Below, piece by piece: positions 5,109-42,404 of a stretch of DNA of 64,000 nucleotides. The stretch's first letter is position 1; each line of letters starts with the position of its first letter. The notes beneath the pieces are model-generated. The model did not search any database. It was given only the letters and a program-made list of their open reading frames with translations, and was not told the DNA's origin. The DNA is from a virus, in IMG/VR virus record IMGVR_UViG_3300005541_000008, positions 1 to 64,000 of that record; one strand, written 5' to 3'. Made by a program: the position numbers and the translations under genes.

Positions 5109-5795
5109 TCAGGTAGGACGTCTCATGAACCCTTGGAGCACAATCCCCACGTCCATGGCCCCCGTCAGCGTGACCGTGCCGTCGAAGTCCATTACGACCG
5201 AGAAGTTCTCGTACGGGTTCAGGGTGATGTTGATGGGTAGGGGGTACCACTTGATCCCTTGCCCACCGCCAGCCCCTTGCGCCGTGATCGTAGAGTTGTT
5301 TGCGGTCGTCGCCACGGAAGAGATCGGGTTCTGCTCAGGGAAGTTGGTCAAGGGAAGAATGAGGATGTCCTTGTCAACGATCCTGAAACGCAGAAATCCA
5401 CCCGTGAAGAAAAGATCCCGGTCCGCGGAATTCGTGACCGAGTTCTTTGTCCCGTGCACGATCATCATGGAGATGCCGATGAACTTAAAGAGCTTCGTCG
5501 GAACAACCCCAGCCTGATCGAGGTTTGTGTCGCGGAACGTTTTCGTCTTCGAAGCAGGGGCCGCGGTACCCGTGATTAGGGTCGCGGACTGCCCCTTAGG
5601 CGTCGAGAAGAATGCGTACTCAGAGCTCAGAGAGCCCCCGGCCGACACCAGGTTAATTCGGTCGTAGAGCGGCTGCCAGAGGTCCTCCGGCAACTCGGGC
5701 CTCTGTACCCGTGTGACTTGCGATTTCAGGGGGTCTCCGACCACCTGCATGCGTTGCGTCCCGTATCCGACGGGATTTGTTTGTCCGAAAGGCAT
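5109..5795 (-). CDS. Putative single jelly-roll major capsid protein
   Basis: 228 aa, all-beta pattern (WQPLYD, DTNLDQAG, ITLNPYENFSV, LQGFMRRP); strong RBS; followed by a hairpin; paralogs elsewhere in the window. Confidence 0.65.
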   Translation of the reverse strand: MPFGQTNPVGYGTQRMQVVGDPLKSQVTRVQRPELPEDLWQPLYDRINLVSAGGSLSSEYAFFSTPKGQSATLITGTAAPASKTKTFRDTNLDQAGVVPTKLFKFIGISMMIVHGTKNSVTNSADRDLFFTGGFLRFRIVDKDILILPLTNFPEQNPISSVATTANNSTITAQGAGGGQGIKWYPLPINITLNPYENFSVVMDFDGTVTLTGAMDVGIVLQGFMRRPT

Positions 5796-13305: not shown

Positions 13306-13878
13306 TTACACTGGCCTCCTTGCAAATCCCGTCGCCTTAAATTGCACTTCCCAAGGCCCTGTTTGTAGCTTCGCAGAATGCGGCCACTTCACGACGAACG
13401 AAAACTTCTCGTGGGGGTTGAAAGTGAGCCTGATCCCGAGCTTTCTCCCGTTCTTGTGAATGCACACATAATTCGCGGTGAGCAGGAGTGCCATGAGGGC
13501 ATAATCACCACCCGGGAAGAGATCAGTCAAGGGCCAAGGACCGTACTCCTTGTCGCCTGCGTAGATAGAGGCGTGACCTCCCCCAACCAGCGCAGCAATA
13601 TCCGGCACGAGCAAGGCCCTGATAGGGTTTAGGCCCCTGTAAAGATAAACAACCCGAAGATCGTACACCTGGAGTAGCTTCGTTCCGAGCACTCCACACG
13701 TTATGTTCCGTCGCGAGAGATCTTCCTCCCCCGACGCGCCAAACACGAGCTCCTTCGTCTTCCCTGACACGAAAGGGAGCGTGTCGTAGAGGGTGTAGTC
13801 GACGTCCTCGGGAACAGATAACACCCGGGTCGTCCTTCGAAGCTCTGCCGTAACCGTCTCTACAACCCCAGATTCCAC
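13306..13878 (-). CDS. Divergent paralog of the putative major capsid protein
   Basis: DYTLYDT, LTFNPHEKFSFVV, ATGFARRPV correspond to WQPLYDR, ITLNPYENFSVV, LQGFMRRPT. Confidence 0.65.
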   Translation of the reverse strand: MESGVVETVTAELRRTTRVLSVPEDVDYTLYDTLPFVSGKTKELVFGASGEEDLSRRNITCGVLGTKLLQVYDLRVVYLYRGLNPIRALLVPDIAALVGGGHASIYAGDKEYGPWPLTDLFPGGDYALMALLLTANYVCIHKNGRKLGIRLTFNPHEKFSFVVKWPHSAKLQTGPWEVQFKATGFARRPV

Positions 13879-13988
13879 TTCACATCACCTCTACCGCACA
13901 GGACAAAACTTCACATTACCCTTACCGTACAGCGCCGCACCGTACCTCACCAATACTTTACGATACCATACCGACGCGCCACAAGACT
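13875..13988 (-). repeat. Orphan NGYNN/NGGYNN array filling the 5' UTR of the capsid paralog
   Basis: Reverse complement parses exactly into 18 pentamers and 4 hexamers (114 nt): agtct tgtgg cgcgt cggtat ggtat cgtaa agtat tggtga ggtac ggtgc ggcgc tgtac ggtaa gggtaa tgtga agttt tgtcc tgtgc ggtag aggtga tgtga agtgg. Confidence 0.85.
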
Positions 13989-14721
13989 AAGCTTCACGTA
14001 CGCCACCCTAAGCCCTTGGGCACCTCGAACTCATTAATTACCTCAACACCCCCGTCTTCGGTGTCCCTCTCAATTCTCACCTCTGCCGAGAGCCGAATCC
14101 GCCTAAAATCCCGACCTTCTATCGCCGCCCGATAAAACATGTCCGTGGTTCGGTGTGCTTCTTCAATCTCCGCAGCCCCTAGCAATGAACGCCCGTAGAA
14201 GACATGCGTCACTACCTCTTCCCTTTTGCGTTCCTCGCCTTCGAAGATATCCACAATAATCTTATACATAACGCAGCGCCCTGTGTTAAGTGAAGGAGCG
14301 ACCGAATCCGAGCCACCAGCTCCGGTCGCCCCCTCTCTGTCCACTTCACGCTCCCCCAACAGGGCGTAAAGGGACCCCGGCTACTACGAAGACACCCAAA
14401 TCTCCTCGAACGTGACTAATGCGCCCTGCTTAAGCTCAGCAGCGAGACCGTAGGTCTCGTAGAGACGGAGCTCTAGAGCGCACTTCCACCCCGGAGGCCG
14501 ACGCTCGCCCACATCAACCGTATACGGGATGCCCACCATTCCGACTTCTACCTGCTCCGAGTGAGGGAGATCCTCAAAACACGTATAGCACATAAAGGCG
14601 TTGCGCTTAACATTCACGCCCATATACCGCGTCGTACCGCAATACCCGCAGCGAGCGAGGAAGAAAGCCCACCGCTCCACCTCGGTCTTGAGATCGAGAT
14701 TCTGCAGAGATGGATCCACAC

Positions 14722-37938: not shown

Positions 37939-38793
37939 GTGAAGAGGGGTGATGGGTGGGTAAGGAAAATGAAGCCGTGTATTCTCACCGTGAAGCGCGG
38001 GAGATATTATTGTGAGCAGCATAAGAGGTACTGCGTGCTCGATAAGAACCGGACAACCCCGACTTACCAGTGTCCTATGAGGGGGGAAGTGATAAAGATC
38101 CGCGCGAAGAAGAAGAGGGTGCCGAAGGCGCTCGAAGCCGCGTTTAACAGCGTTTACACGTTTACGGACACGCTGCGCGGGATCTTGGGTAAGTGCGGCT
38201 TCGTGGAGGGGTGTAAGATAGCGCGGATGCTCGTACATTGGAAGGGCGAGGTGGAGCGTCTCGTGGGGACAGAGGGGCAGCGTCCGGTCGATGTCGCGGC
38301 GAATATGCACACTGCAATCGACACGCTTATTGAAGAGGATAAAAGGAGGTCGCCGGATGAGTATGAGAAGGTGCGGTGCTCGAAGGGGTGCGCGTTCTGT
38401 TGCGAGTTGTATGTCACGGTTACTGAGCAGGAGGCTGAACTGCTTGTTGAAGGGGCGAAGGAGAACGGATGGGAGATTGATCGTGCTCGTCTCGAGAAGC
38501 AAATTTCATTTACTGACGGGAAGGCGTGGGCCGCTGCGCCGAGAGAGGAGAGAAGGTGCGTGTTTTTGGCGGAGAACGGTACGTGTGCGGTGTACGAGTA
38601 TAGGCCCATGGCGTGTAGGTGCTTGTTTGTGTTTAGTGAGCCGTCGGAGTGTAATGTCGAAACGAGCAAGCACGTTTGGAGGTTAGCTGTGATCGAGGCT
38701 GAGGTAGCGACGACAGCTGCGATCACGGTTCTTGGGACTGGCTCCTTAGCGGAGATGGTCCGTGCGAAGTTAGGGCAGAGTGGAGTTTTGTAG
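37939..38793 (+). CDS. YkgJ-family cysteine-cluster (Fe-S/Zn) protein
   Basis: CSKGCAFCC...CVFL...CAVYEYRPMACR. Confidence 0.85.
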   Translation: MKRGDGWVRKMKPCILTVKRGRYYCEQHKRYCVLDKNRTTPTYQCPMRGEVIKIRAKKKRVPKALEAAFNSVYTFTDTLRGILGKCGFVEGCKIARMLVHWKGEVERLVGTEGQRPVDVAANMHTAIDTLIEEDKRRSPDEYEKVRCSKGCAFCCELYVTVTEQEAELLVEGAKENGWEIDRARLEKQISFTDGKAWAAAPREERRCVFLAENGTCAVYEYRPMACRCLFVFSEPSECNVETSKHVWRLAVIEAEVATTAAITVLGTGSLAEMVRAKLGQSGVL

Positions 38794-39636
38794 AGTAGGG
38801 GCGCGGCGAGGTAGCGTTTTGTAGCGGCGTGGTATGGTAATGTATTGCGACGGCGTAGTACTGTGGCGTAGGGTAGCGGCGCGCTATTGTGGGGTAATGT
38901 AACGGCGAGGTGTGGCACTGTGTTGTAGTGTAAGGCGAAGGCGCAGCATGGTGTAGTATCGCGATGGCATGGCATAGTACCGTGTTGTAACGGCAAGGTA
39001 AAGTATCGCAGGGGATCGCGGTGGCATAGTGCAGTGTTGCAACGGTATTGCGTAGTGCAGTGTTGTATCGGTAAAGCGCGGCATAGTGCCGGCAAAGTGC
39101 AGCGGTGCGTTGGTAAAGTGTGGTATAGTGCCGTCGGGGTATAGCCGTGTGACGTATTGTGCCGGCAAAGTGCGGTGTGGTAGGGTAAGGGTAAGGTAAT
39201 GCACTGTATCGTGGAGGCAAAGTGGAGCGTGGTATGGCGCGGGTAAAGTGTAGTTTCGTGTAGTGGTGTACCGGCATTGCGATGTGTTGTGGAGCATGGG
39301 CAAGGTGCAGTATTGTATCGTGTCTGTAGGGTCCGGTAATGTATCGCGTCGGCAAGGTGCAGCATTGTTCCGTCTAGGTAAAGTGTGGTATCGCGTGGGT
39401 ATAGTTTGGTAAAGTGTGGGTATAGTTTGGTAAAGTGCGGTAGTGGTAAAGTTCAGCATCGCGTTGTGGAGTGCTGTTTGGGTGAGGTGCGGCATAGCTC
39501 TGTGCAGCGAGGGTGTAGTGCGGTGCAGTAGTGGCAATGCAGTGTGTAGCATCGGCATTGTCTTGTAGGGCGCTGTAGCGTGGGGGCATTGTCTCGTAGG
39601 GTACAGCGGGGGTGTAGCAACGTATAGTAACGGCAA
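38773..39636 (+). repeat. Non-coding NGYNN pentamer array 1 (upstream of RAMP gene)
   Basis: Near-continuous parse, e.g. cggcaa agtgc ggtgt ggtag ggtaa gggtaa ggtaa tgcac tgtat cgtgg aggcaa agtgg agcgt ggtat ggcgc; a hexamer NGGYNN roughly every 3-5 pentamers; ends at the RBS of the RAMP gene. Confidence 0.9.
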
Positions 39637-39650
39637 AGGAGGAGGAGAGC

Positions 39651-40301
39651 GTGGCAAAAGCAACGAAGGATAAAGAAGCGAAACCAGTACCGCGTGTGGG
39701 CAAGGTCGTTTACGATGTCGATATTACACTGACCGAGCCTATGTTGGGCACAGTGCCTTATAACAAGGAGATCTACGCGGAGTTTATCGAGAAGAGCAAG
39801 CCCAAGGAGATCTCCGAGGACGAGACGGCGACGGTGCCCGAGAGGGATGAGAAGACGGGGTGGACAGGGTTTCACGTTGACGAGAATGGCAAGGGCCTCT
39901 TCATCTACGATTACATGGTGAAGGGGTTTATGAAGAACGCGGCATCGTCGCTCAAGGAGTTCGACGACGTCGGGAAGGAGGAGAAGGGGCAGAAGCAACT
40001 CATCAACAACCTCGTTTTTGTGTTTCCGCGGCGGATCTTTCTCCATAAGAAGAAGGGTGATGGAGTGCTGGAACGTCCGCTGAGAGCGCAGACGATGCAA
40101 GGGCCTCGCGTAACACTCGTGCGCTCAGATCAGGTCGCAGAGGGCACCAAGTTCAAGTGCGAGATTATTGTGCTTGACGGGAATCGAATTACCGAAGCTA
40201 AGCTCCGGAAGTGGCTTGACTACGGAGCGTTTATGGGCCTTGGGCAGTTTCGTAATGGATCGTATGGGAGATTTACGTACGAGATGGTGAAGCGGCGGTA
40301 A
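39651..40301 (+). CDS. Stand-alone Cas7/RAMP-superfamily RNA-binding protein
   Basis: N-terminal strand VDITLTEPMLG, IYDYMVKGFMKNA helix, ERPLRA thumb-like region, C-terminal Gly-rich loop YGAFMGLGQFRNGSYGRF; AGGAGGAGG RBS. Confidence 0.8.
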   Translation: MAKATKDKEAKPVPRVGKVVYDVDITLTEPMLGTVPYNKEIYAEFIEKSKPKEISEDETATVPERDEKTGWTGFHVDENGKGLFIYDYMVKGFMKNAASSLKEFDDVGKEEKGQKQLINNLVFVFPRRIFLHKKKGDGVLERPLRAQTMQGPRVTLVRSDQVAEGTKFKCEIIVLDGNRITEAKLRKWLDYGAFMGLGQFRNGSYGRFTYEMVKRR

Positions 40302-41926
40302 GGCGTAGTAGGGTAAAGTACGGGCACTGTGGAGCGTTGTGAAGTGAAGGTGAAGCAGAGTGTTGTATCGGCTCAGCAGAGTGCTGTAGTGCGCTGGTAA
40401 GGTGAAGTGTAGTAAAGCTTAGGCGCGGTGTTGTACCGTGTGGCGATGGCGGGGGTGAGGTGTGGCTCAGTAGTGTGTTGGTAAAGTAAAGCGTTGCGAT
40501 GTGTCGGTAAAGTATTGCGATGCGTGGTAAAGCGGCGGTATGGTGCAGCGCTGTAACGGTAGGGTCTAGTGATGTAATGCTACGGCAGAGTAATGCGATG
40601 TCGTGCGATGGCAGAGCAGAATACCGTGATGTAGAGGTATGGCAAAGCAGGGTGTTGTAGCGTGCGGGTATGGTGTAGCGCAATGCTGTAGAGTAACGGT
40701 GTGGTGGAGCAGGGTAGCGTGGCGGTACGGTGATGCACTGCGGAGTAATGTAGCGGTCTAGTATAGCTCTGTTACGTACGGTAACGGTACTGCATAGCTT
40801 TGTTGCGTAAGGCGTAGGTAATGCGTTGTTCGGTAGGGTAGTGTGGCGGTACTGCGTAGTGTGGTGGAGTGCCGTGGTGGTACTGCCTTGTTGAGTTAAG
40901 TGGAGTTCTGGCAGAGTAAGGCAGAGCGCTGCAGCGGTGTTGCGATGTTCTGTGTGGGTATTGTGACGTATAGTGGCGGTAAAGTGGAGTCCTGTAACGG
41001 CGCTGCATGGTACCGTATCGCACAGGTATTGTATAGCATGGCCCCGCTTTGGTAGGGTATGGCATCGTACGGGTAAAGTATCGCAGAGTCCTGCTTTGGT
41101 AAAGTTCAGCATGGTTTGGTACCAGTAGTGTTGGGTGCGGTGATGTGGGGTTTTGGTAAAGTATGGTGTCGTGCTGCGTGGGTACAGCGATGTAGAGTGA
41201 CGTATTGGTAGAGTGCTGCAATGTGGCGGTACAGTTTTGTCTTGTGGCGTGTCGGCAAAGTCCGGCTTTGTGCTGTTGCGGTAACGTATGGTGTCGTACA
41301 GCGTTGGTAAAGTGTCGTCGTGTGGCGCGTAGGTAAAGTGCTGCAGTGCGGGGCTTTGGTAAAGCTTGGTGTTGTGCTGTTGTGGTATAGTAGCGTCGTG
41401 TAGCGCACGGGTAAAGTCTGGTGTTGTGCTGCGGCGGTAAAGTGTTGCGCTGTGCTGCGGCGGTAAAGTGTGGTGGTGTGGCGCGTAGGTAAAGTTTTGT
41501 GTTGTTTCGCGGTGGTCTTGTGTTGTGCCGTAATGGTTTTGTACTGGTGCAGTTTGGCGATGTGCCGTGTTGGTAAGGCGCGGTCATGTAACGTGTTGGT
41601 AAAGTCTAGTGATGCAATGCTTCGGTAAAGCGGTGTGGTGCGTTGGCATTGTGCAGTACTGTAATGCGCTGGTAAGGCGCGGTCATGTAATGCTTTGCTT
41701 TGGTAGCGCAGTGTGCAGTAACGGCAGAGTACTGTAGCGTGCCGTGACGGCAGAGCAGAGTTAGGTAAGGCGGCGGTAGAGTTAGGTAATGTAACGGTAG
41801 AGTAGCGTTGCGTAATGGCGTAGTGGAGTATAGTGATGTAATGGCGTAGCAGAGTAGAGTTATGTAACGGCGTTGTATAGTAGTGTGTAGCTGTAGGTGT
41901 AGTACAGTGAAGTGGCGTGACGGCGG
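40296..41926 (+). repeat. Non-coding NGYNN pentamer array 2 (downstream of RAMP gene)
   Basis: Begins in the RAMP stop codon (cggTAA); e.g. cggtaa agtgt tgcgc tgtgc tgcgg cggtaa agtgt ggtgg tgtgg cgcgt aggtaa agttt tgtgt tgttt cgcgg; ~1.6 kb. Confidence 0.9.
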
Positions 41927-41935
41927 AGCAACGCT

Positions 41936-42328
41936 ATGGTCAACGTCGGGATTGTGGGATCGAGAGCGAGGACAGCGCCCGAGGATAAGGAGCGCACGAG
42001 GGTGGCGCTTCTCGAGCTGCTCGATGAGTTTGGTAAGGAGAACGTTACCATTGTCTCTGGAGGGTGTCCTGACGGCGCTGATCAGTTTGCCGAGCAGTTT
42101 GCCGCGGAGTACGGCTTGCCCAAGATTATCCACCATCCCGATAAGAGTAAGTTAAGGGCGAAGGCGCGTTGGGCGTATGCGGAGATATACCACGCGCGAA
42201 ACACATTCGTGGCGCGGGATGCCGAGGTGCTTATTGCCGTGATTAATAAGGGGAAAGAGGGTGGCACGGAGCACTGCGTGAGAGAGTTCTTGAAGATGGG
42301 GAAGAAGAGGTTGGTGATTATCGAATAA
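41936..42328 (+). CDS. SLOG-superfamily (DprA/YspA-like) nucleotide-binding protein
   Basis: VGIVGSR, IVSGGCPDGAD..AE, YHARN, GGTEH. Confidence 0.8.
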   Translation: MVNVGIVGSRARTAPEDKERTRVALLELLDEFGKENVTIVSGGCPDGADQFAEQFAAEYGLPKIIHHPDKSKLRAKARWAYAEIYHARNTFVARDAEVLIAVINKGKEGGTEHCVREFLKMGKKRLVIIE

Positions 42329-42331
42329 AGG

Positions 42332-42404
42332 TGCGCCGTAGGCTAATGGTAGTCCGCTGGTCTCATAAGCCAGACGCTCCGGTTCGATTCCGGACGGCGC
42401 AACC
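42332..42404 (+). tRNA. tRNA with CAT anticodon (Met or Ile2)
   Basis: Acceptor TGCGCCG/CGGCGCA, CTGGT-CTCATAA-GCCAG, GGTTCGATTCC; CCA not fully encoded. Confidence 0.85.

Follow-up and report, generated by a model that had tools for sequence, protein, structure and literature searches.

A 24-unit pentamer array remote from the vipr gene of a virus, a candidate dispersed guide of its own VIPR system

A non-coding pentamer repeat of 24 unbroken units, wedged between two genes of a virus recorded in IMG/VR, is interpreted here as a dispersed (solo-type) vrRNA array of the virus's own VIPR system, which would use the Vipr protein encoded 25 kb away. On the comparison of its repeat units with those flanking the vipr gene and with published VIPR biology, we consider this reading on balance probable. 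The window is the whole stretch of DNA that was analysed (64,000 nt, positions 1 to 64,000 of record IMGVR_UViG_3300005541_000008), and all coordinates refer to it.

In VIPR, Vipr proteins, RAMPs encoded by phages, polymerise along vrRNAs with one protomer on each repeat; the vrRNAs consist of 9–16 pentamer repeats (GGY/NN), the NN bases read double-stranded DNA with every third target base skipped, and competing phages and satellites are silenced (bioRxiv 10.64898/2026.04.26.720920, 10.64898/2026.04.26.720927). Variant repeats including YNNNG are named in the methods of the VIPR paper, which also describes vrRNAs other than type II that have no tails (bioRxiv 10.64898/2026.04.26.720920, 10.64898/2026.04.26.720927). 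In the DNA-bound filament, according to the structural VIPR preprint, one helical turn takes up five Vipr protomers. Solo or orphan vrRNAs were described in satellites and in phages that lost vipr (Lopez et al. 2026, bioRxiv 10.64898/2026.10.15.759431). The VIPR system and the solo-guide concept are therefore already published (2026), and what is new here is a further dispersed array.

Extent and authenticity of the array

Read directly on the minus strand, positions 13988 to 13875 parse without a break into 22 units (18 NGYNN and 4 NGGYNN, 114 nt), exactly as the original prediction had stated, and a dynamic-programming parse lengthened the run to 24 units by moving its start to 13998. The core of the array lies at approximately 13892–13988. 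The array and its immediate surroundings are as follows.

13875–13998, minus strand: orphan pentamer array, 24 units (20 NGYNN, 4 NGGYNN), 124 nt
13885–13891, minus strand: SD-like GAGGTGA, 6 nt upstream of the GTG at 13878 (7 nt from the AGGTG core), within the 6-nt unit AGGTGA
13306–13878, minus strand: downstream gene, 190 aa, predicted jelly-roll, paralogue of 5109–5795
13994–14359, minus strand: co-directional ORF upstream of the array, of 121 aa if read from the first start but more likely of 91 aa from the ATG, matching no family

The 115-nt gap between ORF 13994–14359 and ORF 13306–13878 is exactly filled by the array. The TGA stop of the upstream ORF (13996–13994) falls in the first unit, and the GAGGTGA (13891–13885) and GTG start (13878) of the downstream gene lie within the last three units; this position of the GAGGTGA and the GTG had been pointed out before, and direct reading of the sequence bears it out.

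To put the length of the run against chance, shuffled sequences were parsed with the same grammar. When the 18-kb sense strand was shuffled 300 times with dinucleotides preserved, the longest NGYNN/NGGYNN run reached 9 units (mean 5.3), and shuffling the segment within its own G/T-rich composition 5,000 times produced runs of 10 units at most. Chance is ruled out as the source of the orphan run, which has 24 units against a maximum of 10 in shuffles; the scan against shuffled sequence that had been proposed as a check thus returned no comparable run. Across the whole 77,360-nt virus genome, runs longer than 8 units occur only at the orphan site and at 38763–41942 on the plus strand. A profile HMM made from the 26-nt modules of the main arrays, searched against the rest of the genome, found the orphan site only (E 3.6e-9 and 2.5e-6), the next-best match in the genome having an E of 0.9. 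The repeat is thus real and also present away from the main locus, so that the earlier view of a portable grammar, as opposed to local slippage, stands. The distance from the array to the RAMP gene (39651–40301), estimated at 25 kb in that prediction, measures 25.7 kb, with the two on opposite strands.

The stretch is non-coding: read in frame with the downstream gene it contains stop codons, and neither strand has an ORF of at least 40 aa across it. Its RNA is predicted to be unstructured (folding z-score 0.65, no better than shuffles), and an Rfam search of the stretch found no family. The orphan array lies on the sense strand of a leftward gene string and the main arrays on the sense strand of a rightward string; this common placement on the sense strand of the local operon fits a role at the RNA level. 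One public sequencing run with this DNA was found, a DNA metagenome that is its probable source and contains a contig identical over the stretch; a search for RNA runs with the same sequence had no listed match.

Comparison with the main arrays

Two much longer arrays of the same grammar, together of approximately 480 units, flank the vipr gene.

38763–39636, plus strand: main array 1, upstream of vipr, ~166 units in NGYNN/NGGYNN grammar
39651–40301, plus strand: vipr gene, encoding a 216-aa Cas7-like RAMP with G-loop GLGQFRNGSYGRF, the presumed trans-acting partner of the orphan RNA
40285–41942, plus strand: main array 2, following vipr, ~316 units, most of them in 26-nt modules

Unit by unit, the orphan and the main arrays compare as follows.

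G and Y positions: invariant in the orphan, invariant in the main arrays
Y as T rather than C: orphan 85%, main arrays 70%
Purine after Y (position 4): orphan 80%, main arrays 83%
Remaining unit positions: variable in the orphan, variable in the main arrays
Share of 6-nt units: orphan 17%, main arrays 21%
Spacing of 6-nt units: orphan 4, 6 and 6 units; main arrays 4–6 units, mode 5 (26-nt modules)

Mean unit length is 5.17–5.2 nt. The 26-nt module of the main arrays consists of one 6-nt unit (N-GG-Y-A-N) and four pentamers, often beginning GGTAAAGT; of the 90 distances from one 6-nt unit to the next, 52 correspond to this module. The nucleotide gained over every five units may, judging from the published structure, reflect the turn of the filament; alternatively, it may correspond to the shift by 1 nt in 'staggered' arrays.

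Duplication of a main-array segment was considered as an origin of the orphan and rejected, the longest shared match being 19 nt. Not having been copied from the main arrays, the orphan carries its own code in its own variable bases. A CRISPR array was likewise rejected: identical repeats of 25–40 nt with unique spacers are lacking, and there is just a 5/6-nt period with two fixed bases.

The partner protein and its family

The gene 25 kb away had been called a RAMP, and structure prediction agrees. The AlphaFold2 model of the 39651–40301 product (pLDDT 88) gave Cas7 (type VII) and Csm3 (type III-A) as its top Foldseek matches, with E values of 3e-8 to 1e-7, and its G-loop aligns to the SUSP1 Vipr structure. 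Judged on this model, the product is a minimal RAMP, with an RRM core, a glycine-rich loop and a thumb. With E values of 1e-3 or lower, the search collected more than 1,100 homologues (clusters at 90% identity), and no Pfam domain or informative name is attached to any of them; in an alignment of 36 of them the C-terminal G-loop is nearly invariant. A homologue is encoded on 326 IMG/VR contigs, records of 100–270 kb among them. The closest Vipr relatives are 59–64% identical, the 64% one being encoded on a 49-kb contig and the 59% one on a 53-kb contig, and their loci lie outside the set compared below.

Searched against PDB sequences, the family profile weakly matched Cas7, Csm4 and the chain 36pp_D, which bears the name 'SUSP1 Vipr protein' (E 0.066 over PDB). 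Scored against SUSP1 Vipr alone, it reached 16 bits (HMM) and an hhalign probability of 74%, over 38 G-loop columns only, and tblastn did not reach SUSP1. At the sequence level direct homology to SUSP1 Vipr therefore appears weak; fold and protein-array linkage match.

At one edge of the VIPR locus lies a gene for a CxxCxxCC zinc/iron-chelating-domain protein (37939–38793, plus strand), and at the other edge, after main array 2, one for a small SLOG/YspA-like protein (41936–42328, plus strand). Either product could be that of the accessory (vap) gene of this VIPR type. The SLOG-family gene is directly followed by a tRNA gene (42332–42402, plus strand; Rfam 57.7 bits).

Arrays in related viruses

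Linkage between protein and array was assessed in 80 of the 326 IMG/VR loci encoding a homologue, with 10-kb flanks. In nearly all 80, an array of the same grammar follows the vipr homologue on the same strand, and in some an array is also found upstream. Array lengths range from 10 units to >1 kb, and several relatives have a single array of 10–24 units, which is the size of the orphan.

No genuine remote array was present in the 80 loci with their 10-kb flanks, in three whole related genomes subjected to a full parse, or among the matches listed for 44 whole records searched with one pattern (58 further matches fall outside that list). One remote candidate, in locus L079, was rejected as a GGC coding repeat. 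The remote position is therefore unusual in this clade. A search for relatives of the genes flanking the orphan found none, and no sister genomes were found. In three of the loci (L113, L062 and L081, of records G033, G007 and G019) the fixed pyrimidine is almost always C; such GCNNN arrays satisfy the grammar on both strands, which leaves their strand ambiguous from sequence alone.

In this virus and in the 80 related loci the motif strand follows the direction of transcription. This bears on the most improbable of the readings weighed here, that the tract acts as double-stranded DNA, as a protein-binding or bending element, or is a by-product of G/T-rich composition. The spacing would suit a DNA element: successive G-Y pairs stand 5.2 bp apart on average, or half a turn of the helix, and the 26-nt modules correspond to 2.5 turns. 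Set against it are the constant agreement of motif strand and transcription, the fact that composition alone never exceeds 10 units, and the linkage to a RAMP RNA-binding protein, which together with the published RNA role explains the pattern with no function at the DNA level.

Neighbouring genes and the ribosome site

The gene downstream of the array had been described as a capsid paralogue. The paralogy itself is confirmed, as a word-based search with ORF 13306–13878 found no homologue besides one other gene of the virus, to which it is 27% identical (E 2e-6).

5109–5795, minus strand: paralogue, 228 aa; its family counts 138 representative proteins and has no match in Pfam or PHROG

The capsid part of the description holds to the extent that the structural model resembles capsid proteins, with match scores that are middling. 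Folded with the paralogue family, ORF 13306–13878 gave an AlphaFold2 model of a jelly roll (pLDDT 81). VIA-align placed the FLiP major capsid protein at Z 8.3 (rmsd 3.4 over 129 residues) and SPV1 at Z 7.5, both middling values, and HHIV-2, HCIV-1 and P23-77 VP17 also appear; the best Foldseek match was SPV1 (E 2.5e-3). Based on these models, 'capsid-like paralogue' is a reasonable name for the product, as a candidate capsid protein of membrane-containing-virus type. Upstream of the array, ORF 13994–14359 was considered as a second vipr, its C-terminal ...GLGWRT recalling the G-loop, and was rejected when it did not match the Vipr profile.

Both jelly-roll products (5109–5795 and 13306–13878) are candidate capsid proteins, and none of the scanned ORFs matches a tailed-phage structural family. 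Replication genes comprise a family A DNA polymerase, a UDG-exonuclease, a DUF3987 helicase-primase-like protein and an integrase-HNH fusion. Gene content of this kind fits an idea put forward earlier, that the virus has a membrane and no tail and that its genome is unusually large for such a virus.

The position of the array over the ribosome site raises the question of control in cis. Vipr could polymerise along the repeat within the polycistronic mRNA, covering the SD (13891–13885) and the GTG (13878), so that translation of the jelly-roll paralogue would fall as Vipr accumulates; such an operator could coexist with a guide role. The grammar does run unbroken through SD and start codon, the array exactly fills the space between two co-directional genes, the start at 13878 agrees with the N-terminal length of the protein family, and the published binding of one protomer per repeat on single-stranded RNA would block access to a ribosome site by steric hindrance. 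Incidental origin of the last three units is nevertheless possible, because both AGGTGA and the GTG-rich spacer satisfy the grammar in any case. Overlap with a ribosome site is also not peculiar to the orphan: the gene at 41936 has its SD and ATG inside main array 2, the arrays of relatives end at the ribosome site of the next gene, and the arrangement looks like compact packing. Moreover, twenty units far exceed what is needed to mask one ribosome site, and a role of this kind is unreported for Vipr. We therefore regard a cis-operator as unlikely. Slightly more doubtful is the specific proposal that the orphan is a Vipr-responsive leader, in which a RAMP filament would coat a repeat-coded 5' UTR and set the translation of the jelly-roll capsid paralogue. 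If true, the guide machinery would double as a gene-expression switch, for instance with structural-protein output tied to the level of Vipr.

Target searches

Targets of the orphan were sought under the published rule and under seven alternatives, and none was found, which is counted against the guide reading. Exact gapped seeds of 10–11 units had no match in viral, metagenome and genome collections. Seeds of 8 units had 34 and 46 viral matches, approximately the number expected by chance; on extension they agreed poorly, at 16 of 32 bases or fewer, and many of them fell in AT-rich frames that are not open. Windows of 12 units compared with 1.5 Mb of related loci remained at chance level, and among the proteins compared at the level of degenerate peptides there was no match to the orphan above chance. 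Self-targeting was scored with the full 24-unit guide and a 19-unit core, in two registers, with skips of 0–3 and an extra skip at 6-nt units; it was rejected, as the best scores in the virus's own genome equalled those of shuffled guides and the neighbouring genes were not enriched. The blank is uninformative, given that the collection scans were exact-match only and that the YNNNG variant may be read in either of two registers (positions 4–5, or 5 and the next 1).

For validation of the code, arrays were compared with related loci in 361 12-unit windows under six models and in 1,704 9-unit windows under eight models. Across the related loci no model gave an overall excess, and there was a single match only. 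Under the published rule, twelve consecutive units of the array at L116:3015–3214 match L105:593–628, which belongs to another virus, at 23 of 24 read bases. The matched segment lies inside the L105 vipr gene (509–1072), in frame and with the skipped base at the wobble position. When the L116 guide was shuffled 600 times the best score was 22 of 24, and the alternative models gave no such match. Targeting of the L105 vipr by the L116 array is suggestive and not secure, as the segment is a low-complexity acidic/lysine one and 361 windows were compared under six models.

The lack of a target in the searches run would also suit a relic or decoy, that is, a moved array fragment that is non-functional or serves as a sponge titrating Vipr (the virus's own or a rival's) with no guiding to DNA. 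The remote position, unique to this genome among those examined, and the lack of a tail, promoter or terminator point the same way, and the satellite study took titration by competing vrRNAs into consideration (bioRxiv 10.64898/2026.10.15.759431). All 24 of 24 units are intact, on the other hand, where an unselected relic should gain breaks at G-Y; the orphan is not copied from any main-array segment, and it lies on the transcribed strand. An inert or titrating remnant is accordingly judged improbable, to much the same degree as the cis-operator.

Interpretation as a dispersed guide array

The interpretation as a dispersed guide draws first on the run itself, 24 units against at most 10 in shuffles and, by two independent methods, without a counterpart anywhere in the 77 kb except at the vipr locus. 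It draws further on unit statistics like those of the main arrays, on the sense-strand position, and on the non-coding and unstructured character of the RNA. The Cas7/Csm3-like fold of the partner, the protein-array linkage in relatives and the single arrays of 10–24 units found there add to it, as do the published YNNNG variant, tail-less 'staggered' arrays and solo vrRNAs. A stand-alone guide had been one of the two functions proposed originally, and it is the one that fits published VIPR biology, in which solo vrRNAs are described (bioRxiv 10.64898/2026.10.15.759431). Counted against it, no sigma-70-like promoter or intrinsic terminator was found near the array; the lack of a tail or hairpin of the type II kind, the rarity of a remote position among the relatives compared and the restriction of the partner's similarity to the type Vipr to its G-loop weigh on the same side.

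Transcription, processing, Vipr binding and targeting of the orphan are steps that we infer by analogy with the published system. The array would be transcribed on the minus strand together with the surrounding leftward genes, and the resulting G/U-rich, unstructured RNA would be coated by Vipr from 39651–40301, one protomer per pentamer. Each protomer would grip the invariant G-Y and leave the variable bases exposed; these would read a double-stranded DNA target through a gapped 'NN, skip one' code, leading to silencing of some competitor element.

Guide arrays, on this interpretation, need not adjoin the protein gene, and surveys confined to the vipr neighbourhood would miss guides. The branch of the family to which the array belongs is also poorly characterised; it has a YNNNG repeat, no tails, 26-nt modules and kilobase-long arrays. 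Its overlap with a ribosome site makes it a simple test case for Vipr acting on mRNA as well as on DNA.

Comparison with known systems

The VIPR locus of the type example, Escherichia phage SUSP1 (KT454805, 27.5–29.5 kb), has a 195-aa gene between GGYNN tracts, each with a hairpin tail. The virus described here shares with VIPR of SUSP1 a small virus-encoded Cas7-like RAMP (~200 aa) between non-coding pentamer tracts on the same strand, with fixed G/Y, variable bases between them and no CRISPR repeat-spacer structure. Unlike the GGY of SUSP1, G-Y alone is invariant here, which corresponds to the YNNNG variant and not to YNNGG. A purine is preferred after Y in this virus's arrays, a 6-nt unit recurs at about every fifth unit to give 26-nt modules, and the main arrays continue unbroken over 0.9 and 1.7 kb, their guides not being separated by leaders or 40-nt pseudoknot tails; none of these features is shared with SUSP1. 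Sequence similarity of the 39651–40301 product to SUSP1 Vipr is confined to the G-loop.

TRAP/CsrA-type leaders carry periodic short RNA motifs on which a multimeric protein binds, one motif per subunit, so that the SD is masked. The orphan resembles them in layout only, with a motif every 5–6 nt in a leader within which the SD and start codon fall; it differs in that a RAMP filament would take the place of a ring or dimer and in that the repeat is ten times the length of a ribosome site.

The structured 3' tail of type II vrRNAs is absent from the orphan, which runs straight into coding sequence, and no boundary motif common to the orphan, the main arrays and the arrays of relatives was found. 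The lack of a 3' tail excludes type II only, since other vrRNA types have none. In being a continuous tract with no tails between guides, the arrays are like the tail-less 'staggered' arrays of the VIPR paper (fig. S18); as far as that figure describes them, the next guide begins there where the previous one ends, with a 1-nt offset, which the periodic extra nucleotide observed here could match.

vrRNAs are recognised as pentamer tracts of at least nine units with invariant G and Y, and the orphan, with 24 such units, stands apart from any vipr/vap operon, its neighbouring ORFs not being Vipr-like. The solo vrRNAs of F5 satellites and of VIPR-null SUSP1-family phages belong to elements that lack vipr or mark the site of a deleted vipr-vap, whereas the genome of the orphan has an intact vipr and very large arrays. 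Those solo vrRNAs keep a conserved 3' tail, and the orphan is tail-less, wedged between two genes and overlapping a ribosome site; their targets have been identified (REP elements, vipr, satellites), in contrast to the orphan, for which none was found. What the orphan has in common with them is a tract with no adjacent vipr or vap, in a non-coding gap of a mobile element, which presumably uses Vipr supplied in trans.
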